Below, in pieces: positions 11,950 through 61,116 of a stretch of 64,000 nt of DNA. The stretch lies in IMG/VR virus record IMGVR_UViG_3300036945_000956; one strand, written 5' to 3'. A model generated the notes under the pieces. It did no database searches. It was not told where the DNA came from and saw nothing but the letters and a program-made list of their open reading frames with translations. The DNA comes from a virus. Taxonomy: Duplodnaviria; Heunggongvirae; Uroviricota; Caudoviricetes. Positions within the stretch are counted from its first letter, which is position 1; the number at the start of each line of letters is the position of its first letter. A program made the position numbers and the translations under genes.

Positions 11950-13521
11950 TCAGGTTCTAAGAGCAGCACGAACATCAGCATTCAATTGATCAATTTCTGC
12001 TGAAGAACCATTTCTAAATTGATCATTAAAATGCAATTTTAAAGCATTTGTGTGTGCTAATGGTCCAGATGTTTCAGTCCATTGTGATCTGTAATCTCGA
12101 ACATCAATATGAATAAAATTATTGTTACCACCAGAGTATGTGCCAATACCCATAGCACCTTCTTCACTAGCTGCTTTAATAAACTTCTCACCTGATTCAA
12201 AGTCTGTACCAAAACTACTTCTTGCCACATCAAGGGCCATACCTGACATATGATAACTATTTTTTGCGCCACCAATACTTCTATTATATGCAGGTGATCT
12301 ATATCCGGAATTAATGCTTAATTTCTTACCTAATTTTTCTGATATTCTCATACCAAGAATAAGAATATCAACAGTTAACTTTTTTACACCTATAGCATCT
12401 GTTGGATTATTCATTGAACCACCAATTGTGCTAAAGTCAAACCATTTTGTACCAGGATGATTACCTGTCAATATATCAGCAGCAGCTGCAGATATAATTG
12501 CTATTGCTGTAGCCTTTTCAGTTTCTGTAAAAGGTCTTGTATACCACTTTCCAGGTTTAGCTTGCCCTGCTTGATCAAGACCAGAATCAGCTCCATTGTT
12601 AAGGTTATCTGAAAGTTGTTTCTTTACAGCTTCAACATTATCATCACTCATTCTAAATGCACCAGCAGTAACAGCAGATAGACTGAATTCAGTTGAAGCA
12701 TTTGTTAATACATTTTTAACATCAGTGCAACTTTGTAAAGCATTTTGTAGTTCTGATAATGGACTACGCATAAATTGTTCAACAGCATTTGATAACTGAC
12801 AGAATCTATAAACAAGATACTCAATATTCTGTTGTGTGATATTAGTAAACTTATTTGAGGTTGATGCAATTACACCATTCACAGTATCTTTTAATGTCTG
12901 AATATTTAAATCACTAAAGAAGTCAGAAGTCTGTTGAACTGTATTTGCAATACCTTTAATAGATCCTAAACAGTTGCTAACTTGCTGTATTAATTGTGTG
13001 ACAAGTTGTGATAACTTTTCTTTTAATGTATCAATCAATGTTTCAATTAATTTTTGTATATTAAGTATTGCACCTATAACATTGTTAACAGTATTTAATG
13101 CATTAAAAACATCATTTAAGACACCAGAGAATATAGTACAAAAACCATCAGTACTTGATGAAAAGTTATTGGTGTAATATGTATTCAGATTTTCAAGATA
13201 TTGTAATGCAGTAATTGATAGTTGATTAGGATTTAATGCTTGAACCATACTTTGAGTTGTGCCAGTTGCAATTAAAAAGTCAGCATATTCAGTGGTACTA
13301 ATTGGACCACTATTTAATCTATCATATAACATTGGATAATCATATTCTTGTCTTGCCAATGTAACCAATAAATTTAAATCTGTTAGTGCTATAAGTAGAA
13401 ATGATTGATCATATTGTTTTGCAGAATCGTTTTGAAGATCAAATAGATCACCAACGGAAAGAATTTTATACTCTAACTCTGCTGTAGTTGAATTAAGATT
13501 AAAATATGGGCTACAAGACAT
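11950..13521 (-). CDS. Baseplate or tail protein with a C-terminal peptidase M15 (LAS-type zinc D-Ala-D-Ala carboxypeptidase-like) domain
   Basis: C-terminal SGYRSPAYNRSIGGAKNSYHMSGMALDV...FIHIDVR gives the SxHxxGxAxD plus HxD zinc-peptidase signature. The N-terminal two thirds are coiled-coil and Q/N/L rich. Confidence 0.55.
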   Translation of the reverse strand: MSCSPYFNLNSTTAELEYKILSVGDLFDLQNDSAKQYDQSFLLIALTDLNLLVTLARQEYDYPMLYDRLNSGPISTTEYADFLIATGTTQSMVQALNPNQLSITALQYLENLNTYYTNNFSSSTDGFCTIFSGVLNDVFNALNTVNNVIGAILNIQKLIETLIDTLKEKLSQLVTQLIQQVSNCLGSIKGIANTVQQTSDFFSDLNIQTLKDTVNGVIASTSNKFTNITQQNIEYLVYRFCQLSNAVEQFMRSPLSELQNALQSCTDVKNVLTNASTEFSLSAVTAGAFRMSDDNVEAVKKQLSDNLNNGADSGLDQAGQAKPGKWYTRPFTETEKATAIAIISAAAADILTGNHPGTKWFDFSTIGGSMNNPTDAIGVKKLTVDILILGMRISEKLGKKLSINSGYRSPAYNRSIGGAKNSYHMSGMALDVARSSFGTDFESGEKFIKAASEEGAMGIGTYSGGNNNFIHIDVRDYRSQWTETSGPLAHTNALKLHFNDQFRNGSSAEIDQLNADVRAALRT

Positions 13522-13530
13522 GTTTATTCC

Positions 13531-15234
13531 TTATACCGTATCATCAATTTGATTAATACTAATACCGCCGGTTGTCGGTGATGATTGTTTTTTAGTTGCA
13601 ATACCGGCAGTTGGTGGTTTTTCAATATTTGCTGCACCTTGAGTATCTGCTACGGTTGCAACAGAACCGTCATTAAGATGAACTTCAGTGCCTTTAATAG
13701 TGGCATTACCACCAGTTGCTTCAATTCCCACTGTTGCCGCATTTACATTGAAATTAGCACCTTTAACTGTAGTATCACCCACTGATTGTAATTGGATCCC
13801 TTCAGAAGATAGAACACCAACACCGCCTGCGGTTGCTGACAAGCCTACACGTGCAGACTTTATGTCTAATGATGTACCAGAGTTCAGTACAATATCACCA
13901 GCGGCTGCTATGTTAATGTTAGAGTTTGATGATATGCTTAAATCACCGACTGAGTGTAACTGAATACCACCATTTTCTACACGAATCGAATAACCACCAT
14001 CAGAAATATTTGTGGTATGACCACCGACCTGTTGTTCAAAGTCATTTATTGAAACTACATGTAAACGACCAATTGCCCCAATTGTTACATTACCATTTTG
14101 ATCTAATGCAATGTGAGCACCGCTCTTATGAATAATATTAATATGTTCATTGTTTTCACCATCACCACCATGCATTTCAATATACGAACCATTATAACTT
14201 GCATTAATTACTGTTGTATTATGTGATCCTCCAACAGCAAGACCTGGATGATAAAGATCACCAGTTGATTTTTGAAAGTTTGCAAGTGCTGGAGCTAGTG
14301 GTGTGTGATGAATGCCTTCACCAGTTCTCTGAGGCGGTAATGCACCCTGACCATATGATTCAATTGTTGATGATACTAATGGTGTATACGGTGCGGTTGA
14401 CGGAAGTGTTGATGTCACAATCCCTGGATCAGTGCCGGTAATTCTAAAATAGTCTTCCAACCAATTTTTTTGATATGTTGCCGAAGTTTGCCCACGATTT
14501 ACACTAAGTTGTTCGGCAGACATATTGCCTTGAGCATTTCCTGTAAACCAAACGTTTGGTATTGCAGCAACATTGTTATTATTCTTTGCAAGAATATCAT
14601 TTACATAGTGTCCGGCTACTGCATCTTGTATGGCTGGAGGTGCATCAGCTGCATGACTATATTCAGTACCAATACCTGCAGCTGTCGCACGTTCTTGCCA
14701 TGTCGAGTCAATAAATTGATAAGCACCTGAAGCTGTAGATCCTATAGCATTACCGTTTGCATCTCTCTCGACATATCTTGTTCCACCATTTTCAGCTGTG
14801 TAATCACCGCCTGATTCTCGAGCTTTAATTGTTCTAAGAACACCTTCTGCAGTACCTGAAACATATGCTGGTGTTGCATTATTCTGGGATTGATCATTAG
14901 CACTCATATCACCAACAGAGCCAGTAGGTTCTAATGTAGGAATCCCAAACTTTGGTGTTGGTATTACCCCAAAGATAAGTGGTTGTTGAGCATCACGTCC
15001 ATCAAGAAAAGCACCAAATACCAATTCACCAATGGCAAGTTTTGCAGAAACACTTACGTTATTAACAAGAACTGTTGCCCATGGTAAATCATCTGCACTA
15101 ACAGTGCCTTCTGCAATAGTAGGATGGAACCCAAAAGCTCTTACTTTTACACGGCCTTCGTGTTTAGGATCATTAATGCGCTGCACAATTCCCATAAACC
15201 AAGTAAGGTTATTTAAGCCCTCATATAATATCAT
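13531..15234 (-). CDS. 5: Baseplate hub and cell-puncturing protein gp5-like, with a central lytic-transglycosylase-like (GH23/SLT-type) domain and a C-terminal beta-helix
   Basis: N-terminal GIVQRINDPKHEGRVKVRAFGFHP resembles the T4 gp5 OB domain. The middle has RESGGDY...GSTASGAYQF.DSTWQ, which fits the E-S...GAxGxxQ SLT motif. The C-terminus is a GxxVxxG repeat beta-helix. Confidence 0.65.
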   Translation of the reverse strand: MILYEGLNNLTWFMGIVQRINDPKHEGRVKVRAFGFHPTIAEGTVSADDLPWATVLVNNVSVSAKLAIGELVFGAFLDGRDAQQPLIFGVIPTPKFGIPTLEPTGSVGDMSANDQSQNNATPAYVSGTAEGVLRTIKARESGGDYTAENGGTRYVERDANGNAIGSTASGAYQFIDSTWQERATAAGIGTEYSHAADAPPAIQDAVAGHYVNDILAKNNNNVAAIPNVWFTGNAQGNMSAEQLSVNRGQTSATYQKNWLEDYFRITGTDPGIVTSTLPSTAPYTPLVSSTIESYGQGALPPQRTGEGIHHTPLAPALANFQKSTGDLYHPGLAVGGSHNTTVINASYNGSYIEMHGGDGENNEHINIIHKSGAHIALDQNGNVTIGAIGRLHVVSINDFEQQVGGHTTNISDGGYSIRVENGGIQLHSVGDLSISSNSNINIAAAGDIVLNSGTSLDIKSARVGLSATAGGVGVLSSEGIQLQSVGDTTVKGANFNVNAATVGIEATGGNATIKGTEVHLNDGSVATVADTQGAANIEKPPTAGIATKKQSSPTTGGISINQIDDTV

Positions 15235-18156: not shown

Positions 18157-18191
18157 TATAAATACATATAAGCTTTAACATATTTATATGG
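18157..18191. promoter_or_regulatory. Divergent pair of T4-type late promoters (TATAAATA on each strand)
   Basis: Plus-strand TATAAATA at 18157 to 18164 sits 34 nt upstream of the ATG at 18198. Minus-strand TATAAATA (tatttata at 18184 to 18191) sits about 38 nt upstream of the ATG at 18146. Confidence 0.7.
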
Positions 18192-18197
18192 TTTTTC

Positions 18198-18656
18198 ATG
18201 GCAGCGTATCAAGGCAAATTTAAACCGAAGAATCCTTCTAAGTATAAGGGTGATCCTACAAATATTATTTATAGATCATCGTGGGAACTTAAGTTAATGG
18301 CATATTTGGATTCTCATCCGAATGTTATTAAATGGGGCTCGGAAGAGATTGTGATACCATATGAAAGTCCAGTTGACGGAAGAATGCATAGATACTTTCC
18401 AGACTTTTTTGTAGAGCAAATAAATAGAGATGGTAAAAAAGAAAAGATACTAATTGAAGTGAAACCAAAAGCACAGACAATAGCACCGAATCCAAGTACA
18501 AAGTTAACACCCAAGGGAATGTTGAATAAAAAATATATCAATGAAGTTATGACTTACGGCGTGAATATGGCAAAGTGGAAGGCCGCTGAGGAAGTCTGCA
18601 AGGATCGTGGCTGGATTTTTCGAATTATGACGGAAATAGAACTAGGAATCAAGTAA
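18198..18656 (+). CDS. 4: Head completion protein gp4-like (PD-(D/E)xK motif PDFFV...IEVKPK)
   Basis: 152 aa. The N-terminus K.KNPSKYKGDPTNIIYRSSWEL resembles T4 gp4 and its homologs. A late promoter lies upstream. Confidence 0.5.
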   Translation: MAAYQGKFKPKNPSKYKGDPTNIIYRSSWELKLMAYLDSHPNVIKWGSEEIVIPYESPVDGRMHRYFPDFFVEQINRDGKKEKILIEVKPKAQTIAPNPSTKLTPKGMLNKKYINEVMTYGVNMAKWKAAEEVCKDRGWIFRIMTEIELGIK

Positions 18657-20807: not shown

Positions 20808-22202
20808 ATGGTAGAAGTAACCAGCAAACCAACTGATATATCTAAGATTCAAGATATTATGAATGCAATTAGTTCAAATGGTGGTTCAGATAAAACTGGG
20901 CTTATGGTAGATTATGCTGCTGGTTCAAAACTTGAAAGTGGTATCAATGAACTTAAAATGATTGGCAAAGAACAAGCTGTTTATCTTAAAAAAATGGTTG
21001 GTTATCAAGAAGCAATGCTTGGAAAGGCCAGAAGAGAAGATGTATCTAGTGCTGCAACGCCATCAAAAAAAGGTAAAAAAGATAATGATGAAGAAGAAAG
21101 TAAATCTGCTAGTTTAGGTTCGGTATTAGCAGCTGCTGGATCAGCAGGACTTATGTCATTACTTGGACCTTTAGGATTACAAGCTGCAGCAGGAATGTTA
21201 CTTAGAGGTGGAGGTGGCGCTGACAAATTAAAGGGAGCACCTGGAAATGACCGACTGAATGTTAATGACACAAAACCAAAAACATCGACAAAATACTTAA
21301 CTGTAGATGAGCGTCTTGCAGCAATTGCCGAAGATAAGCGTCTTGCCACACTTGCTGAGCAAGCATCATCCAAACCAAAAACATCAACAAAATACTTAAC
21401 TGTAGATGAGCGTCTTGCAGCATTTGCTAAAGATAAACTTCTTGCATCAATTGATGATCTGAATACAGTGCCAAAACCAAAACTATCTACAAAATACTTA
21501 ACTGTAGATGAGCATCTTGCAGCGCTCGGTGATAAAAAACCAACACTCAAACCAATGCCACCAATGAATGCTGGGTTAGAACCATTCAAATTAACACAAG
21601 ATATGCGTGTTACCACTGAAGCCGCACCTAAAATATATCCTAAAATATCAGATGCACCAACAAAAGGTATAGTTAAGCCACCAAAAATGTCCAAAGTACC
21701 TGGCGCACTTGGAGCATTATTATCAGGTGGTATGGGTTATTTTGATCAAGAATTAAAAGATGCCGGACTTGATGCCACACAAAGAATTCGTCAAGGTCTT
21801 CTTGAATCTATTCCTGGCGCAATTGATATGTTTGTTCAAGGTTTAATCACAGATCCACTTAATAGCATAACAGGAAGAGGATTTGCCGCTGAGGAAGATA
21901 AGTTTAATCTTGATATTACACCGGCATTTCGTAAATATATGTTGGCATCAATTGATGAAACGCCTAATAAAACAATAGCTGCAGCTCCAAATAGAATGAC
22001 AGCATTTAAAACGGCTATGGCACCAACAACAGTACCTGATAAAACCCTTGCACAACCACAAGCAGCACCTATTATTATTGCACCGCCTGCAGCACCAGCA
22101 TCATCTGTAGTGAACTCTAATAACCAACAGACCACCATTGTAAATCAAACAAAAAATGTGTCTGCATCGTTATACACACAGATGCTTGGTGGTAATCGGT
22201 AA
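20808..22202 (+). CDS. Repeat-containing virion protein, putative tape-measure or baseplate-hub (gp29-like), with a hydrophobic segment and 3 tandem repeats
   Basis: 464 aa. The hydrophobic stretch is SASLGSVLAAAGSAGLMSLLGPLGLQAAAGMLL. The repeat KPKTSTKYLTVDERLAAIAEDKRLA occurs three times (DNA repeats at about 21283, 21373 and 21478). A terminator follows at 22203. Confidence 0.45.
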   Translation: MVEVTSKPTDISKIQDIMNAISSNGGSDKTGLMVDYAAGSKLESGINELKMIGKEQAVYLKKMVGYQEAMLGKARREDVSSAATPSKKGKKDNDEEESKSASLGSVLAAAGSAGLMSLLGPLGLQAAAGMLLRGGGGADKLKGAPGNDRLNVNDTKPKTSTKYLTVDERLAAIAEDKRLATLAEQASSKPKTSTKYLTVDERLAAFAKDKLLASIDDLNTVPKPKLSTKYLTVDEHLAALGDKKPTLKPMPPMNAGLEPFKLTQDMRVTTEAAPKIYPKISDAPTKGIVKPPKMSKVPGALGALLSGGMGYFDQELKDAGLDATQRIRQGLLESIPGAIDMFVQGLITDPLNSITGRGFAAEEDKFNLDITPAFRKYMLASIDETPNKTIAAAPNRMTAFKTAMAPTTVPDKTLAQPQAAPIIIAPPAAPASSVVNSNNQQTTIVNQTKNVSASLYTQMLGGNR

Positions 22203-22260: not shown

Positions 22261-23175
22261 TTAGTCATCAGCAAGGTTCTTGAAGAATGATAGACTGTCG
22301 TCATCATCCTCATCAATAGAAGGCGATGAAGCTTCACTCATAGCAGGAGCAGAACGTTCCTTAAACTTAGGAGTGTAGTCCATCACCTCATCATCGTCCT
22401 CAGCAGCAGTGGATGTGGGTGCACGTTTGCTACCGTCAAGACCAAGTGTGCTATACAATTTGGTCTTGAGTTCTTCATATGATTTGAAGTTTTTAGGATC
22501 GACAATATCCTTTAGAGAATTTTCTGATTTCCAGATTTCCTCTAGGCGATCATCATCTTCCAACAAAGGACCTGCTGGGGCAAAATCTGATTTGTCATAG
22601 TTCTGATAACCTTCATACTTACGAATTTTAAGTTGAAAGTTAGCACCTTTCCATAGATCGAAAGGGTTAACCTTTGCTTCACCTTCAAATTGTGGATTCA
22701 TAAGGTCATTGAGTTTTTCAAAGATTTTCTTACCAAACTTGTATAGGAAAACTTTGCCTTCATTAGAAGGATTTGCTGGATCACGTACGATATAGACGTT
22801 TGCAATATATGACTCACGACGCTTTTGTTTACGAACAATCTCTTTGTTTGCTTCAATACCTGTTGCCCAAAGTTCTGAGTTATGTTCAGAAACTGGATCA
22901 GGCATTCCAAGAGTTGTAAGTGATTTCTCAATATACCATTTACCAGTTGGTCCCTGGAATCCATGATCCCATAGGCGCACAAATGGCATTTCTTCATTTA
23001 CTGGAGGAGGGAGGAAACGAAGGACGGCAAAACCATTGCCAGCCTTATCAACGATTGGTTTCCAATATTTATCTTCGTCATTAGAATAGTTCGGCTTGCC
23101 CATTGATTTCAATTGATTATTCAATTTATCAAATGACGATGAACTGTTTTTCTTAAGGTCTGCGAAATTAACCAT
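22261..23175 (-). CDS. 32: Single-stranded DNA-binding protein gp32
   Basis: KAGNGFAVLRFLPPP, GKWYIEKS, VYIVRDPANPSNEGKVFLYKFGKKI and an acidic C-terminal tail, all T4 gp32 signatures. Confidence 0.85.
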   Translation of the reverse strand: MVNFADLKKNSSSSFDKLNNQLKSMGKPNYSNDEDKYWKPIVDKAGNGFAVLRFLPPPVNEEMPFVRLWDHGFQGPTGKWYIEKSLTTLGMPDPVSEHNSELWATGIEANKEIVRKQKRRESYIANVYIVRDPANPSNEGKVFLYKFGKKIFEKLNDLMNPQFEGEAKVNPFDLWKGANFQLKIRKYEGYQNYDKSDFAPAGPLLEDDDRLEEIWKSENSLKDIVDPKNFKSYEELKTKLYSTLGLDGSKRAPTSTAAEDDDEVMDYTPKFKERSAPAMSEASSPSIDEDDDDSLSFFKNLADD

Positions 23176-23196
23176 GTTTAGTATCCTTTATGCGAT

Positions 23197-23787
23197 TTAT
23201 TTGCGAAATGTTGCGATTATAGTAGTTTTAATTTTTGCCTTATCGAATGATAAGAATGGTCTATATTTGACACATGTTCTCTTTATATCAGGCCATATTA
23301 TTTTGTCAACCAATTTCTTATCCCAATAATCAAAAATATTTATCACGTCGTTTATCATAATCAAGGTTTCAGAATGTATTTGTTTTGTCAAGTACATTCG
23401 GATCAGTGGTGGATGTTGACCGTCCTTTGTAAGAACATTGGAATCAAAATCTCCATCCATGTTATTTATATCAGATTGGAAAGTATACATCAGTGATTGC
23501 TGAACTTTTTTCCAATCATTGTAGATAGTTTCACCATTACCATTACCAAGATCACCTATCCATAATTTAGGATTATGAATGATATTTGCTAAAAGATAAC
23601 TTTGAGAATCAGATCGTTTTGATAGTTTATAGAAAAAGAACTTGTCTTTTCTATTCTCAAAGGCATCTTGTGATGCTCTCACTTTACCATTGTATTTGAA
23701 AAAATCATAATCAGTGGTAAAGTGTTTCTTTAAAGCCAAATAGTACACATACAGATCATATGCAGCTTTTGTTGAATATATACTCAT
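23197..23787 (-). CDS. 59: gp59 loader of the gp41 DNA helicase
   Basis: RKDKFFFYKLSKR and the N-terminal HMG-like region resemble T4 gp59 RRDKYFFQKLSEK. The gene order 59 then 32 is as in T4. Confidence 0.7.
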   Translation of the reverse strand: MSIYSTKAAYDLYVYYLALKKHFTTDYDFFKYNGKVRASQDAFENRKDKFFFYKLSKRSDSQSYLLANIIHNPKLWIGDLGNGNGETIYNDWKKVQQSLMYTFQSDINNMDGDFDSNVLTKDGQHPPLIRMYLTKQIHSETLIMINDVINIFDYWDKKLVDKIIWPDIKRTCVKYRPFLSFDKAKIKTTIIATFRK

Positions 23788-24005
23788 ACTGGAAGTTGTG
23801 CCGTTTTTTCTTCTAATAAGTTAAGACGTTCTGCATCATTACGAACTTTTGCTTTTAATACAACAGAACGTCTTACAATTTCACCAATCAATTCAATTTC
23901 AATATCATGTTTTTCAGAGAAATGTACTAAAGCATCAATAAGACTGACTTCATTATTTGTATATTGTTCTACTTCTTTTAGGATCATTTCAGCTGAAAGT
24001 GTCAT
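23784..24005 (-). CDS. Hypothetical small protein (gp33/DsbA position)
   Basis: 73 aa ORF overlapping the gp59 start by 4 nt. Confidence 0.35.
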   Translation of the reverse strand: MTLSAEMILKEVEQYTNNEVSLIDALVHFSEKHDIEIELIGEIVRRSVVLKAKVRNDAERLNLLEEKTAQLPV

Positions 24006-24006
24006 A

Positions 24007-24204
24007 TTATTCCTTCAATACTTGAATCTGTGATGCCCATGTTTCGGCAATGTTTTGTGCCGTTTGTTCATTGACAAAGTTTTCAGATCTGAATAACTGA
24101 CCACTATTATTGTAGTAATGAACCTCATATAGACCATTATTTTTAATCACTTCAGCTCGGGCCTTTGAAGTCTGTTCATTAAAGTATGTTGAAATTAATT
24201 CCAT
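24007..24204 (-). CDS. Hypothetical small protein
   Basis: 65 aa ORF with the promoter cassette upstream (gatatgtcaatc at 24250). Confidence 0.4.
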   Translation of the reverse strand: MELISTYFNEQTSKARAEVIKNNGLYEVHYYNNSGQLFRSENFVNEQTAQNIAETWASQIQVLKE

Positions 24205-24267
24205 GTTTATCCTTTCATAGTCTATAGTTTAATATACACCAACTATAAGATATGTCAATCTAATAAT

Positions 24268-24302
24268 AAAATGTGGAGAGATTAAGTTCTCTCCACATTT
24301 TT
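24268..24302. terminator. Rho-independent terminator (AAAATGTGGAGAG...CTCTCCACATTTTT)
   Basis: Perfect 11 bp stem with A and T runs on both sides, immediately after the stop of the 24308..24655 gene. Confidence 0.7.
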
Positions 24303-24307
24303 AAGTA

Positions 24308-24655
24308 TTAGAAACTAACAGTGGCGCCAATAACTACATCACCGAAGTTAAAATTCTCATCTGTAGATACATTTGCATACAAATTAAAACTGTCGTTCAA
24401 ATCATACGAAGCTTCAAGATCAAGACCGACAAAATATACATCAGCCAAATCAATATCGGTACCGATTGTCAAGTCGACAGAAGCAAGACTGTAATACAAT
24501 GCTGGAGTTGCAGTCAATGCAATATCACCACCAGCGGTCAAATTGTATTCTGCATTGATGTCGGCGCCAACAGAGAAGCCATAGCCAAGGTCAGCAGCCA
24601 TTGCAGAAACAGCGGTCATTGCAAGGATGGTAGTTGCAAGAAGAATCTTTTTCAT
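24308..24655 (-). CDS. Secreted small beta-barrel outer-membrane-protein-like protein
   Basis: Signal peptide MKKILLATTILAMTAVSAMA. Alternating hydrophobic beta-strand pattern and a C-terminal Phe (…ATVSF), which is an OMP signature. Confidence 0.5.
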   Translation of the reverse strand: MKKILLATTILAMTAVSAMAADLGYGFSVGADINAEYNLTAGGDIALTATPALYYSLASVDLTIGTDIDLADVYFVGLDLEASYDLNDSFNLYANVSTDENFNFGDVVIGATVSF

Positions 24656-24689
24656 AGTATTTCCTTTAATTATATAAACATGTTTAAGT

Positions 24690-24996
24690 GAGCCCGTTAG
24701 GTTATACGGTGGAGCTCATACCGCAAGAGATTAAGCCGCTAGGCGAACCTCAGGTGCGAAATTTTCATTTGCCTTTAGTTTATTTAGCCGATACGAGGCC
24801 ATCCGGTAAACTCCACTCTATCTTCACACCTGTCGATCCTAATTTCGACCCCAGCAAAGATACACTACCAGACGGCGTAAAGCCTATCCCCGTGTCAAAA
24901 GACCATAAGCAGTGTATCTATGGTGGAGTCGTGCGGTACCGCCCCGCAGTCCAGAATGTGTCCATGTTGCTTCAATATTTACAAGTCTATTTATAA
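24690..24996 (-). ncRNA. ssrA: Circularly permuted (two-piece) tmRNA (ssrA)-like gene: acceptor piece followed by coding piece with a tag ORF
   Basis: On the minus strand, a T-arm UGCGG-GGCGGUA-CCGCA is followed by acceptor 3' strand CGACUCC, then A, then CCA (plus 24921 to 24950). After an intervening segment bracketed by the 9-bp inverted repeat AGAUACACU/AGUGUAUCU comes GGGGUCGAAAUUAGGAUCGACAGG (plus 24830 to 24853). That matches the tmRNA 5' consensus GGGGnnGAnnnnGGAUUCGACGGG, and its first 7 nt pair perfectly with CGACUCC. The downstream reading frame GCA AAU GAA AAU UUC GCA CCU GAG GUU CGC CUA GCG GCU UAA gives ANENFAPEVRLAA-stop (plus 24772 down to 24731). The GC content is far above the phage background. 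Confidence 0.6.
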
Positions 24997-25027
24997 CACC
25001 TTAATTAGTATATGTCAACCATTGTTT

Positions 25028-25327
25028 TCAAAGGTGTCCCCATGGTGTCCATGCTTTAGAATTATCAGTATCGGTAAAGTCATAGGTCTTTTCAAAGATG
25101 GCTTTATCACAAATATAAAGTTCAGCATCAATACCCATCATGAGATAGTCACCAGCTTTACCTTGCTTGTAATTACCTTCAAGAGTATTGACACGGAACT
25201 CTTCATGTATCTGTTTGGCATGAACAACAATAGGTCGTTTCATACAAGGTTGTAAATTATGCACATATTCATAAGTTTCAAACGTTTTCATATCAACCTC
25301 TATCATATCGCCTAATTGTTTCTTCAT
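25028..25327 (-). CDS. Hypothetical protein
   Basis: 99 aa ORF with the promoter cassette nearby (tatatgtcaacc at 25005 belongs to the downstream gene). Confidence 0.35.
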   Translation of the reverse strand: MKKQLGDMIEVDMKTFETYEYVHNLQPCMKRPIVVHAKQIHEEFRVNTLEGNYKQGKAGDYLMMGIDAELYICDKAIFEKTYDFTDTDNSKAWTPWGHL

Positions 25328-25425
25328 GTGTTAACTTATGTTTTGGTGTTGTCACAGGCACAGGAGGATTATCATCTTTCTTTTTAGCATCCTCTATGTC
25401 TGTTTCAAGTTTTTTATTATCCCAT

Positions 25426-25893
25426 TTAGCCATTGTCAGTTTCTTTCTTGTAAAAAATATGTCCGTCAATCTTTGTAGTAACAACATATGATTTTCTCCA
25501 AGAAGGTTTACTATTTAATGTGTGAAACATAACAGCACCATCTGTTGGATCGTTGCTAACCTTATGGGTTTTAAGAATCACATATGCTATATATAAGGCT
25601 CTAGCCCATGCATTATCATCCTTAGGATCATCAGACTTTTTATCTCTTGTCCATGAGAATTGACCTCTATCATAGACAACATCACAAATATCGTCTGGGT
25701 ATTCTGGAGAGTTAGTCCTATTAAGAGTCACCCATGCAACAGCTTTTTGACCCAGACTAGATTCACCTCTTGATTCAAAATAAACATTAAGTGCTAGACA
25801 ATTTAATTCATTCATATAATCATCATGTAGTGCTTCAACTTTAGTACTTGTTAAGATACTAGTGAGAATAATTATTCCTAAGATATATCTCAT
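25426..25893 (-). CDS. SleB-like cell wall hydrolase (Hydrolase_2 family) with signal peptide
   Basis: N-terminal hydrophobic leader. The motifs NVYFESRGE, AVAWVTLNR and YPDDICDVVYDRGQFSW match spore-cortex-lytic and cell-wall-hydrolase family proteins. Confidence 0.6.
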   Translation of the reverse strand: MRYILGIIILTSILTSTKVEALHDDYMNELNCLALNVYFESRGESSLGQKAVAWVTLNRTNSPEYPDDICDVVYDRGQFSWTRDKKSDDPKDDNAWARALYIAYVILKTHKVSNDPTDGAVMFHTLNSKPSWRKSYVVTTKIDGHIFYKKETDNG

Positions 25894-33641: not shown

Positions 33642-33932
33642 TCAGTTGCGAGTTTCAATAGTACTATGTAAATGTGCCTTCTTGGCCTTTTTTAGTACGT
33701 CGTTAAATCCGTCATCAATTCTACGGAAGCCTAATCGGACTGAGTCTCCAATAGATACCATTGGTGGTACTTGCATGTAATCTTGATTTTCTTCTAGGAA
33801 TTTCTCTCTCTCTGCCAAAGATAAAATTTGTGTTACTTCTTCAAGGGTTTCCTTGTTACGAAAAGTATACGTCGGCAATATAATACTCCTTAATAAAAAA
33901 GGCGGCATAGTAGCCGCCTTCACTTCCACCAT
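33642..33932 (-). CDS. Hypothetical protein; annotated start overlaps a terminator, so the true start is probably downstream (possibly TTG at about 33876 after GGAG)
   Basis: The ORF 5' end coincides with the hairpin at 33894 to 33920. Confidence 0.3.
   Translation of the reverse strand: MVEVKAATMPPFLLRSIILPTYTFRNKETLEEVTQILSLAEREKFLEENQDYMQVPPMVSIGDSVRLGFRRIDDGFNDVLKKAKKAHLHSTIETRN
33894..33920 (-). terminator. Rho-independent terminator (GGCGGCTACTATGCCGCC plus T6)
   Basis: The hairpin is followed by TTTTTT on the minus strand, just after the stop of the 33948..34538 gene. Confidence 0.6.
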
Positions 33933-33947
33933 AGGAGTATTTATAAT

Positions 33948-34538
33948 CTAATGAAAGAATGTAATCATCTCATAAATTTCCTTCCAGCCTTTTACAACAG
34001 GAACATCTGGGTGAACAAAGTCTTTGTTATAGTCATGTTCAATTAGGACTGCCCACAAACCAAGATCATTACCACACACTGCGTTTTCTGGTTTATCTTC
34101 AATCCAGAAACAATCAGTATCTTTGTATGGAAGCAATGCCTGATCCTTATCAGCACCACAATCCAAGCAGATCACCTTTTCAAAGATGTTGGCGCCAAAG
34201 ATTGAGTTCAGATTCTTCCGCCGAAGTTTGCCGGCATATTCATTGGTACTCAGTGAGGTAATGCAATGGAAAACAAACCCATGTTCCTCATGAAGTTTCC
34301 GAACATATTTAATAGCATCACGGAAAGGAGTAAGAGAACCAATGTTAGACGATTCATTGAACTGCCGAACAAAGGCCTTCATATCAGCCTTTGGAATGTC
34401 ATATGTAATTGCCAAATCATATACACCATCAACCTTTTTGGTGTATCCATGTTCTTTCATGTAATTGTCAAATGAGTATACCCAATCAAGAAGAACACCA
34501 TCACAATCGGTTAGGATCACTTTATCTTTCAGTTTCAT
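33948..34538 (-). CDS. HAD-superfamily 5'(3')-deoxyribonucleotidase-like hydrolase
   Basis: Motif I LTDCDGVLLDW (DxDGV) and the C-terminal WIEDKPENA resemble the NT5C family. Confidence 0.5.
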   Translation of the reverse strand: MKLKDKVILTDCDGVLLDWVYSFDNYMKEHGYTKKVDGVYDLAITYDIPKADMKAFVRQFNESSNIGSLTPFRDAIKYVRKLHEEHGFVFHCITSLSTNEYAGKLRRKNLNSIFGANIFEKVICLDCGADKDQALLPYKDTDCFWIEDKPENAVCGNDLGLWAVLIEHDYNKDFVHPDVPVVKGWKEIYEMITFFH

Positions 34539-34995: not shown

Positions 34996-36369
34996 TCACA
35001 TTTTTTTCCACGACTTTTCAAAGTTACCAGCCATGATGTTACCATATGGCATGATACGATCAACAGTCACAGCCAAACCAAAACCCAACATATCAGCCTG
35101 AACAGTAGCAGCACTTTTGTAAGCACTTGGCAATTCACTGATGTCAGGTATTCCAGACCAGAACCGAGCATCAATACCACGAGTTTCCTGTGCTACCAAT
35201 TCGGCTTCAGACAAGGTCTGTTGACGAGCAAATTGTGAACGACTGAAGATACGACCGGCACCGTGTGGTGCAAAACCTATCTCATTGTCGGCATGTGCCT
35301 TAACAAACAAAATTGGCTCAGCCATGTTCATAGGAACAATTTGAGTGTCATATGGGTCACGCAACAAAGCAGTGTTAACAGGTGTAGAACCTTTGGCGTG
35401 ATATACCAATTGATCATCACTTGGGTCACGGAATACAAAGTTGTGTGGAGTAAAGATACGATCAGTACCAGAAACAGACAAACGACTCAACACAGCATCA
35501 TGCAAACTGTTATGGTTAGCACGAGTCCAATCGTGGGCAATCTCCAAAGCATCCCAATATTCAACACCTTCGTCAGTGTCCAATGGAATCCAGGCATTCT
35601 GCTTCAACGTTTTTGGGCTCATTTGAATCCGAAACTTTTCAGCAATCTCCATACCTTTTTTATAGATACCAGCGCCAAAACCACGGCTACCGAAGTGCGA
35701 GATCAACCAAACATCACCAGTGTTTTCACTACGGCCAACAGATATAAAATGGTTACCATCGCCAGAGGTGCGCAAATGACTCATAGAAGCATTTACAGTT
35801 TTTTGATCACGAGTAAAGCGGTTAACCAAAATGCGATCCAACAAACTCAAGTCAATTTGTTCAACAGGAGTCGAATGGCCACCAGGACCAAAGTGACTCA
35901 ATTCATGTGCAACATTCAATACATCCAAAGGATCAACATCACCGAAGTTGGTGGCACTCATAGAGCAACACACATCAGCTGAGTGCATGCCAGGATGGAT
36001 AGCATTACGAGTCACAACCATACCACCCACTGGGATAGTACCAATTGAACCTGCAGGACAAGCATCTGGCATTACCGAAGCACTTACAACTGTGGGAGTC
36101 TTGACCAATTCAGCCATAGTAGCCATTACAGCATTGTAGTTTGCGGTCTCGTATTCATCACCTTGTGACAAAAATACATTAATAGCAATATTGTCTTGCA
36201 ATGGCATATACACTGGTTCTACAGGCATATTTCGTTGGATAATGTCAGCCAAGACAGAGTCATCAACTACAGCAATCTGACGCAATTCTTTCAGGATCTT
36301 ACCGATATGTGGACCTGGCTTTACACCACGGTCAATCAAATCTTTGCCAGTCCAAACATATTGTTCCAT
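34996..36369 (-). CDS. rtcB: RtcB RNA 3'-phosphate/5'-OH ligase
   Basis: ASVMPDACPAGSIG, GDGNHF, PHNF and HGAGR match the RtcB catalytic motifs. 457 aa. Confidence 0.8.
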   Translation of the reverse strand: MEQYVWTGKDLIDRGVKPGPHIGKILKELRQIAVVDDSVLADIIQRNMPVEPVYMPLQDNIAINVFLSQGDEYETANYNAVMATMAELVKTPTVVSASVMPDACPAGSIGTIPVGGMVVTRNAIHPGMHSADVCCSMSATNFGDVDPLDVLNVAHELSHFGPGGHSTPVEQIDLSLLDRILVNRFTRDQKTVNASMSHLRTSGDGNHFISVGRSENTGDVWLISHFGSRGFGAGIYKKGMEIAEKFRIQMSPKTLKQNAWIPLDTDEGVEYWDALEIAHDWTRANHNSLHDAVLSRLSVSGTDRIFTPHNFVFRDPSDDQLVYHAKGSTPVNTALLRDPYDTQIVPMNMAEPILFVKAHADNEIGFAPHGAGRIFSRSQFARQQTLSEAELVAQETRGIDARFWSGIPDISELPSAYKSAATVQADMLGFGLAVTVDRIMPYGNIMAGNFEKSWKKM

Positions 36370-38115: not shown

Positions 38116-38170
38116 TTATTATCTCCAAAAATTAACTCATAGTATAAGTATACACTATTTATAGCAAATG

Positions 38171-58621: not shown

Positions 58622-58697
58622 TGGTGGGTCTACTGGGACTCGAGCCCAGATTGTTCGTTTTAGAGGCGATTGCATACACCGTTCATGCTCTAGACCC
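58622..58697 (-). ncRNA. tRNA-like element with an aberrant anticodon arm (possible tRNA pseudogene or noncanonical tRNA)
   Basis: Perfect acceptor GGGTCTA/TAGACCC-A-CCA, D-stem GCAT/ATGC and T-arm CTGGG-CTCGAGT-CCCAG. No 5 bp anticodon stem can be drawn. Confidence 0.35.
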
Positions 58698-60916: not shown

Positions 60917-61116
60917 TCAATTACTCCTTGCATATCAGTATTTATAATACTATTTATTTCATAGGAGTATCGGAATCGAACCGATAGTTTTTGTTTTCTT
61001 GCTGTAAACATTCTAAATTAGTATTGCTAGGGGTTTCGGACGCTCCCTATTACGCAGCACTACGCTACTCGACTTACGCCTAAGTCTGGGTCTGTTAGTT
61101 CCGGCCTAGCAATTTT

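Follow-up and report, generated by a model that had tools for sequence, protein, structure and literature searches.

The viral DNA analysed here, a 64,000-nucleotide (nt) stretch of IMG/VR record IMGVR_UViG_3300036945_000956 (the window), very probably carries a functional phage-encoded gene for a circularly permuted, two-piece transfer-messenger RNA (ssrA or tmRNA) of the alphaproteobacterial type, placed at the fixed tmRNA locus of a clade of marine T4-like myoviruses. An earlier note on this DNA had claimed a two-piece permuted tmRNA with the tag ANENFAPEVRLAA, and had proposed a permuted search with ARAGORN and a search with the Rfam tmRNA models as checks. Both were run, and both were positive. 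ARAGORN called a permuted tmRNA (tmRNA*) on the minus strand at 24640-25015 with exactly the tag ANENFAPEVRLAA, which upholds the claim. The Rfam 15 model tmRNA_permuted (RF04321) matched with 99.6 bits (E=3.5e-18) over model positions 1-213 of 213, and alpha_tmRNA (RF01849) matched with 86.7 bits (E=4.3e-22) over model positions 1-355 of 355; since both scores lie above the curated gathering thresholds (47 and 50 bits, respectively) at these E-values, the likeness to tmRNA is far beyond chance.

The order of elements is that of a permuted gene. In the sequence and in the ARAGORN call alike, the T-arm, the acceptor 3′ strand and CCA lie 5′ of the acceptor 5′ strand and the tag frame, with an excisable spacer between them, and every element previously listed (T-arm, CGACUCC, A, CCA, spacer repeat, 5′ segment and tag frame) was found on the minus strand. 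The gene is complete, comprising a promoter, an acceptor piece, a spacer, a coding piece with its tag frame, and a pseudoknot. The functional unit is slightly wider than the 24690-24996 first given for the gene: it starts with the promoter (25018) and stops where the pseudoknot does, at 24690. The description of the locus as a GC-rich island holds in a relative sense only: local GC content is 47-48%, against a window mean of 37.4%, 30-35% in most of the neighbouring few kb and 42-45% in the adjoining outer-membrane-protein-like (OMP-like) gene, and other parts of the window reach 51%.

All parts of the gene lie on the minus strand. The acceptor piece (24921..24982, about 62 nt) was delimited from the Rfam alignments, the coordinates and the covariation of helices 1-5, with its 5′ end predicted from the position of the promoter. 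It consists, in order, of the P2 outer strand GUAAA, a small hairpin UAUUG-AAG-CAACA, the P2 inner strand CACAUUCUG, the T-arm TGCGG-GGCGGTA-CCGCA (24948-24932), the acceptor 3′ strand CGACTCC (24931-24925), the discriminator A73 (24924) and an encoded CCA (24923-24921). The intervening spacer of 68 nt (24853..24920) is predicted to be removed from the precursor. Its inverted repeat, given in the earlier note as AGATACACT/AGTGTATCT, was scored over the inner 8 bp, GATACACT (24918-24911) and AGTGTATC (24866-24859); the stem that closes the spacer, GAUACACU/AGUGUAUC, measures 12 bp in the minimum free energy (MFE) fold of the spacer. Searched with a degenerate pattern of the tRNA-like domain, IMG/VR gave at least 119 matching contigs, and ARAGORN found a permuted tmRNA in 64 of them; spacer length has a median of 74 nt in 63 viral tmRNAs, compared with 68 nt in the window, and reaches 207 nt at other loci. 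In one close relative (L030, IMGVR_UViG_3300009079_000064) the spacer is 155 nt long (13488-13642) and holds a 65-codon, ATG-initiated open reading frame (ORF) that begins at 13500 and extends into the acceptor 5′ strand.

The coding piece (24690..24852, about 163 nt), defined by ARAGORN, Rfam and covariation and with its predicted 3′ end set at the end of the pseudoknot (24690), runs from the acceptor 5′ strand GGGGUCG through a D-loop analogue AAAUUAGGAUCGA, the 3′ strands of P2, a hairpin preceding the tag and the tag frame to the post-tag pseudoknot. Its first segment, GGGGTCGAAATTAGGATCGACAGG, begins at 24852, and the first seven bases (GGGGUCG) pair fully with CGACUCC, the G3:U70 wobble included, so that a 7-bp acceptor stem with the alanine identity pair G3:U70, A73 and CCA are all present. 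The tag frame assigned by ARAGORN (24731..24772) opens with the resume codon GCA at 24772 and ends in the stop UAA at 24733-24731; the frame GCA AAT GAA AAT TTC GCA CCT GAG GTT CGC CTA GCG GCT TAA encodes ANENFAPEVRLAA, with an alanine resume codon and a terminal LAA before the stop. The post-tag pseudoknot (24690..24724), identified by covariation, aligns to the terminal segment of the alpha_tmRNA model and is built from stem 1, GCGGU (24724-24720) with ACCGU (24710-24706), and stem 2, GAGCUC (24717-24712) with GGGCUC (24695-24690).

Comparative evidence for this structure comes from an alignment of the window gene with 11 IMG/VR relatives, or 12 phage genes in all, against which the structure proposed from the window sequence was scored. 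In this alignment 92.7% of cells are paired, as against 35-43% after sliding the partners by 1-3 columns; the former figure is somewhat favoured by the origin of the structure, which was written from a sequence in the alignment. Changes on both sides of a pair are stronger evidence, and 34 of 53 pairs have them; on none of these measures did any of 500 column shuffles come up to the observed value. All cells of the T-stem are paired (100%), and 3 of its pairs covary; the inner and outer parts of P2 are 93.8% and 96.7% paired, with 5 covarying pairs each; and the small 5′ hairpin is likewise supported by covariation. The acceptor stem covaries at position 5:68, and 11 of the 12 homologues retain G3:U70. 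Both-side changes affect 4 of 5 pairs in stem 1 of the post-tag pseudoknot and 5 of 6 in stem 2. The sequence of the spacer is unconserved, yet its closing stem covaries, with 7 of 8 pairs altered on both sides. As judged from this alignment, the RNA structure is under selection within the phage lineage.

The same comparisons bear on the proposal that the locus encodes protein on the plus strand and that its likeness to tmRNA is incidental. Two plus-strand ORFs do exist (24688-24996, 102 amino acids (aa), and 24920-25255, 111 aa), and tblastn with the 111-aa ORF matches related loci. Those matches, however, are stretches of 20-36 aa that lie exactly over the conserved tRNA-like domain, and large indels in the spacer among relatives, the covariation of paired columns and RNA-model E-values of 1e-18 to 1e-22 all speak against coding on that strand; we regard it as exceedingly improbable.

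Several observations weigh against the assignment of a functional alpha-type tmRNA. The alpha_tmRNA score in the window falls below the 111-130 bits of six of the close IMG/VR relatives rescanned with Rfam, and about 43 positions of the RF01849 model that follow the stop codon and precede the last pseudoknot are missing, making the gene shorter than the model. No convincing pseudoknot PK1 precedes the tag, where we see only a weakly supported 4-bp hairpin (73-78% paired) and where two 4-bp stems that exclude each other could form. When the two pieces are co-folded, the MFE structure has the 7-bp acceptor stem but neither the T-arm nor P2; it pairs the T-arm with the post-tag region, and the comparative structure has an energy of -36 kcal/mol versus -98 kcal/mol for the MFE. 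Since the pairing between T-arm and post-tag region shows no covariation in relatives, we reject it as an artefact. The expectation that the two pieces would co-fold into a tRNA-like domain plus pseudoknots was thus borne out only in part by energy, which gives the acceptor stem and mispairs the T-arm; what supports the structure is comparative evidence, from the covariance models and from covariation. Finally, tblastn of the 64-kb window with an E. coli SmpB sequence, a weak test, gave no smpB (best E=2.9). Phage tmRNAs normally depend on host SmpB, and the tmRNA of the window presumably uses it as well; with none found in the window, function would depend on the fit with the host protein.

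Selection is also visible in the tag. In pairwise comparisons of the 12 genes, third codon positions account for 186 of 229 nucleotide differences in the first seven codons and for 113 of 135 in the last four; codon differences are synonymous in 141 cases and non-synonymous in 67 in the first seven codons, and 113 versus 11 in the last four. This third-position and synonymous bias implies that the N-terminal AN(D/E)NFAP and the C-terminal LAA are conserved as peptide. By this pattern of codon change the tag is under selection, as expected of a frame that is translated into a tag read by adaptors and proteases. Between the fixed ends the middle is highly variable among phage relatives. The nearest relative (L062), 78% identical over 327 nt, has the tag ANENFAPKAYALAA, and nearly all tags of the 64 viral permuted tmRNAs are of the AN(D/E)N...AA type. 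A search of the IMG/VR collection for the exact 42-nt tag frame gave no match, and hence the same phage population is not in the collection searched.

A variable middle with fixed ends, together with unusual tags in the same syntenic clade, such as the very unusual AKKAHNDNINYSAMKIAA, might instead suggest that the expressed tmRNA mainly competes with or re-programs trans-translation by the host, for example by giving rescued proteins a tag of the phage's own, with another fate or another adaptor specificity. A precedent is the tmRNA of mycobacteriophage DS6A, which lacks a coding sequence and is reported to inhibit the endogenous tmRNA in E. coli (PMC11915505). We consider this unlikely for the window gene, in which the intact frame, with its canonical beginning AN(D/E)N and ending LAA, and purifying selection have the look of an ordinary degradation tag.

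Expression would begin from a promoter at 24990..25018 on the minus strand, recognizable in the sequence by a -35 element TTGACA (25018-25013), a spacer of 17 nt whose last bases are TGT (extended -10) and a -10 element TATAAA (24995-24990). TTGACA-17-TATAAA is a predicted near-consensus extended -10 sigma-70 promoter, and equivalent -35, TGn and -10 elements occupy the same position in most of the 11 aligned relatives; our consensus promoter scan, which requires T at position 6 of the -10 element, passed over it. The -10 element is overlapped by TATAAATA (24995-24988), which equals the T4 late-promoter consensus and is three-fold enriched in the window (20 matches versus 6.0±2.4 expected; 0 of 100 shuffles as high). 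From these overlapping sigma-70 and TATAAATA elements, expression of the tmRNA both early and late is possible. Other TATAAATA sites lie, for example, at 18157-18273, 38156-38163 and 60939-60946, and several of the sites are seemingly intergenic when judged by eye.

For the functional two-piece tmRNA that we favour, a course of events can be proposed, its steps of transcription, processing, charging and tagging being those that we infer from established tmRNA biology. From the start of infection, host RNA polymerase would use the sigma-70-type promoter to transcribe a precursor, possibly doing so late in infection as well through TATAAATA. The acceptor strands would pair, with the spacer hairpin stacking on the acceptor stem, and host tRNA-processing enzymes would then act on the precursor, RNase P cutting 5′ of G24852 and 3′ trimming exposing the encoded CCA. 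The 7-bp acceptor stem, together with the P2 helices, would keep the two resulting RNAs joined. Host alanyl-tRNA synthetase could alanylate the tmRNA through G3:U70 and A73, and host SmpB and EF-Tu would bring it to ribosomes stalled on broken or stop-less mRNAs, where translation would resume at GCA, add (A)ANENFAPEVRLAA and end at UAA. The ribosome would be recycled and the tagged fragment passed to ClpXP- or Lon-type proteases. The phage might benefit by keeping a small pool of ribosomes free and by recycling amino acids during the destruction of host mRNA; this is the most plausible benefit because T4-like infection yields many broken host mRNAs and such hosts have few ribosomes.

The setting of the gene is that of a T4-like phage. 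On the basis of its gene content the window belongs to a T4-like myovirus, encoding baseplate wedge and hub proteins, a gp5-like protein, a tail-tube cap, gp32, gp59, gp33, RNase H and PhoH, along with a PD-(D/E)XK exonuclease and an RtcB protein; the baseplate, gp5-like, gp32, gp59, gp33 and RNase H genes bear out the phage context first proposed for the tmRNA. On the minus strand the local order is an ORF with a PGDYG domain (25028-25327), the promoter, the tmRNA, ORFs of 115 and 65 aa, and then a module spanning 22261..24005 that contains, by Pfam and PHROGs, the late-transcription coactivator gp33 (23784-24005), the helicase loader gp59 (23197-23787) and the single-stranded DNA-binding protein gp32 (22261-23175). 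The gp33 gene lies 0.7 kb downstream of the tmRNA on the same strand. In 13 of the 64 viral tmRNA loci, a lower bound as many contigs are short, gp33, gp59 or gp32 is found 0.6-6 kb downstream on the same strand, and several of these 13 also have PhoH, exonuclease or DUF932 genes upstream.

This fixed position in a clade of T4-like phages bears on whether the gene could be a recently captured host ssrA or the remnant of an attachment site, carried unused. Genes for tmRNA are often integration sites, and fragments of them occur in prophages (PMC9004378, PMC4383910); moreover, a full ARAGORN tmRNA was found in only 64 of the loci, at least 119 in number, that match the tRNA-like motif, and some of the others may be fragments or have been cut by contig ends. 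The window gene, by contrast, has both pieces, the promoter, the tag and the pseudoknot intact, and the phage copies have undergone compensatory and synonymous change. No integrase was seen among about 30 annotated ORFs, and T4-like phages are a lytic group. In addition, among 185,579 species genomes no intact cellular tmRNA was found with the P2 signature TAGGATCGACAGGTGTGRA: the signature was present in 3 contigs, where about 9 occurrences would be expected by chance for a 19-mer, and ARAGORN found no tmRNA in any of the 3. The lineage thus looks phage-resident rather than freshly captured, and we judge capture or a remnant to be very unlikely; the pattern of this phage subfamily signature argues for long residence in phages over repeated capture. 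One contig assigned to a cellular genome (L120, 4035-4241 of JBEAPG010000217.1, from a metagenome-assembled genome labelled 'Bacteroidota') carries a phage-type tRNA-like domain with the P2 signature. The contig is 4.3 kb long, its end cuts the locus short, and it is probably a piece of phage DNA that was binned wrongly.

Published work has already described two-piece tmRNAs in marine myophages, and the gene described here is a further example rather than a new phenomenon. Melnitz, a phage of the Methylophilales OM43, carries a two-piece alpha-type ssrA with an early promoter upstream and gp33 directly downstream, and permuted tmRNAs are present in 17 of 47 contigs related to it (Buchholz et al. 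2022, PMC9004378). The same study surveyed 18,146 phage genomes and counted 53 two-piece tmRNAs, of which 50 were marine or aquatic (PMC9004378), and a 2025 tmRNA database lists 79 unique phage tmRNAs (PMC11915505). The arrangement in Melnitz, which we know from its published description, with ssrA after an early promoter and just upstream of gp33, is common to the window. Melnitz and Mosig also have a glutamine riboswitch in the 3′ domain of ssrA, which the authors did not consider a defining feature (PMC9004378); unlike in Melnitz, the glnA and Downstream-peptide models gave no match in 23900-25600 of the window, either at gathering score or at E<=1.

Our analysis adds one well-studied case to this pattern of large marine phages that infect streamlined heterotrophs and bring a two-piece tmRNA of their own, encoded at a conserved locus. 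It contributes covariation support from within the phage lineage, including the stem that closes the precursor and the post-tag pseudoknot, shows selection on the tag peptide and provides evidence for long residence in phages.

Among cultured phages the Pelagibacter phage HTVC008M provides a close parallel in gene order. Like the window, it is a T4-like marine myophage with an alpha-type two-piece tmRNA (NC_020484.1, about 145120-145461; 6121-6462 of L125), which passes both Rfam models (90.6 and 83.8 bits), and the order RNase H, PhoH, exonuclease, tmRNA, gp33, gp59 and gp32 is colinear in the two. Its locus matches that of the window through the exonuclease, a hypothetical gene, the tmRNA, two small ORFs and gp33, with gp59 following across the ends of the record. 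The two differ in the tag (ANFNEYALAA in HTVC008M versus ANENFAPEVRLAA), in a peroxiredoxin gene that HTVC008M has between gp33 and gp59, and in the ORF directly after the tmRNA, which in HTVC008M is a different protein that lacks the signal peptide of its counterpart in the window. The feature table of the HTVC008M record lists no tmRNA, despite its detection by ARAGORN and both Rfam models, and the tmRNA runs at its 3′ end into the annotated start of gp195.

At the DNA level the relationship to cultured phages is remote. One 184-bp stretch of gp32 in the window is 77% identical to HTVC008M, and the best matches to the gp32 protein are in the Sinorhizobium phiM12 group (58.6%), whose members carry no tmRNA in the 25 kb that surround gp32. 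A blastn search with the tmRNA locus against 50,697 cultured-phage records (INPHARED) gave no match at E<=1e-5, the HTVC008M tmRNA being too diverged for detection at that cutoff; at E<=10, short matches to the tRNA-like domain appeared in cultured phages. The best of these, 88.6% identical over 41% of a 191-nt query, are to roseophages and phages of other Alphaproteobacteria (DSS3P8, DSS3_MAL1, MD18, RcXuper and vB_RpoS-V10), which have alpha-type permuted genes with AN-N...AA tags such as ANINNAPMEMAIAA and ANTNAAPMEMAIAA; two of the matches were verified as permuted tmRNAs. In this group, with genomes of about 146-150 kb, the tmRNA lies among tRNA genes and lacks the gp33-gp59-gp32 neighbourhood of the window.

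The cellular two-piece tmRNA of Alphaproteobacteria has its paradigm in Caulobacter (Keiler et al. 2000, as cited in PMC9004378). With the cellular type, as represented by RF01849, the window gene shares its gene order, G3:U70, the T-loop GGCGGUA, the D-analogue AGGAUCGAC, the P2 helices, an AN(D/E)N...LAA tag and the terminal pseudoknot. A 5′ hairpin of the model has the promoter in its place in the window.

The permuted arrangement had been taken to point to an alphaproteobacterial host. In favour of this, the seven tRNA-like domains of similar sequence that were found in cultured phages belong without exception to phages of Alphaproteobacteria (hosts Ruegeria, Phaeobacter, Rhodobacter, Erythrobacter and Sinorhizobium), and HTVC008M, which has a syntenic copy, infects SAR11. 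Against it, Melnitz has an alpha-type ssrA and infects OM43 (PMC9004378), and the type of tmRNA can therefore fail as an indicator of the host. We regard an alphaproteobacterial host for the window phage as likely but unproven, and tmRNA type as a useful though imperfect clue.

Other genes in the window are also related to translation. ARAGORN found 12 tRNAs, and Rfam added one that ARAGORN missed (58625-58697, minus strand, 73 nt, 44.4 bits), with the anticodon loop CUCUAAA and hence the amber-reading anticodon CUA. Two of its five anticodon-stem pairs are mismatched, and it may be a suppressor tRNA or a decaying one. TAG is the rarest stop in the window (10 of 88 ORFs), and recoding of TAG was rejected as the reason for this tRNA, there being no genome-wide signal. 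One ORF of 196 aa (33948-34538, minus strand) ends in TAG in frame with the next ORF of 96 aa (33642-33932); if the TAG were read through, the product would be 101 codons longer, a fusion of about 298 aa (33642-34538) that could be a target of the CUA tRNA. An RNA ligase of the RtcB family (34996-36369, minus strand; PHROG E=6e-78, Pfam RtcB E=3.5e-32) lies in the same early region as the tmRNA and the tRNAs, and no PrfH-like release-factor gene adjoins it.

These neighbours allow a broader and more speculative proposal, to which we give a low probability: that the tmRNA is one arm of a phage kit for maintaining translation, along with the 12 tRNAs, RtcB and the CUA tRNA-like gene, or that the shortened two-piece lineage, fixed upstream of gp33 and often probably co-transcribed with a gene for a small secreted OMP-like protein, has evolved a role specific to phages. 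If the CUA tRNA suppresses UAG, ribosomes would be driven to the 3′ ends of messages, and a phage tmRNA would be needed to clear them. A phage-specific role might consist, for instance, in the selective tagging of host proteins so that their amino acids are recycled in nutrient-starved hosts.

The OMP-like protein of the window, encoded directly 3′ of the tmRNA by the 115-aa ORF (24308..24655, minus strand), has a signal peptide and a C-terminal Phe. No terminator is predicted between the tmRNA and this ORF, which starts 35 nt past the last pseudoknot stem, and it is therefore probably co-transcribed with the tmRNA. A tmRNA followed by a small signal-peptide ORF, with no terminator between them, is also found in the relatives L062, L052, L113 and L046 (proteins of 108-142 aa). 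Alternating β-strand-like sequence and the C-terminal Phe are shared by the proteins of the window and these four relatives. No Pfam or PHROG family matched the 115-aa protein, and its roughly 95 mature residues seem few for a monomeric 8-stranded barrel. Beyond gp32, on the plus strand, an ORF of 464 aa without a PHROG match (20808-22202) encodes a motif of about 30 aa, ...KPKTSTKYLTVDERLAA..., repeated in tandem to give three copies, and low-complexity ends rich in Ala and Pro.

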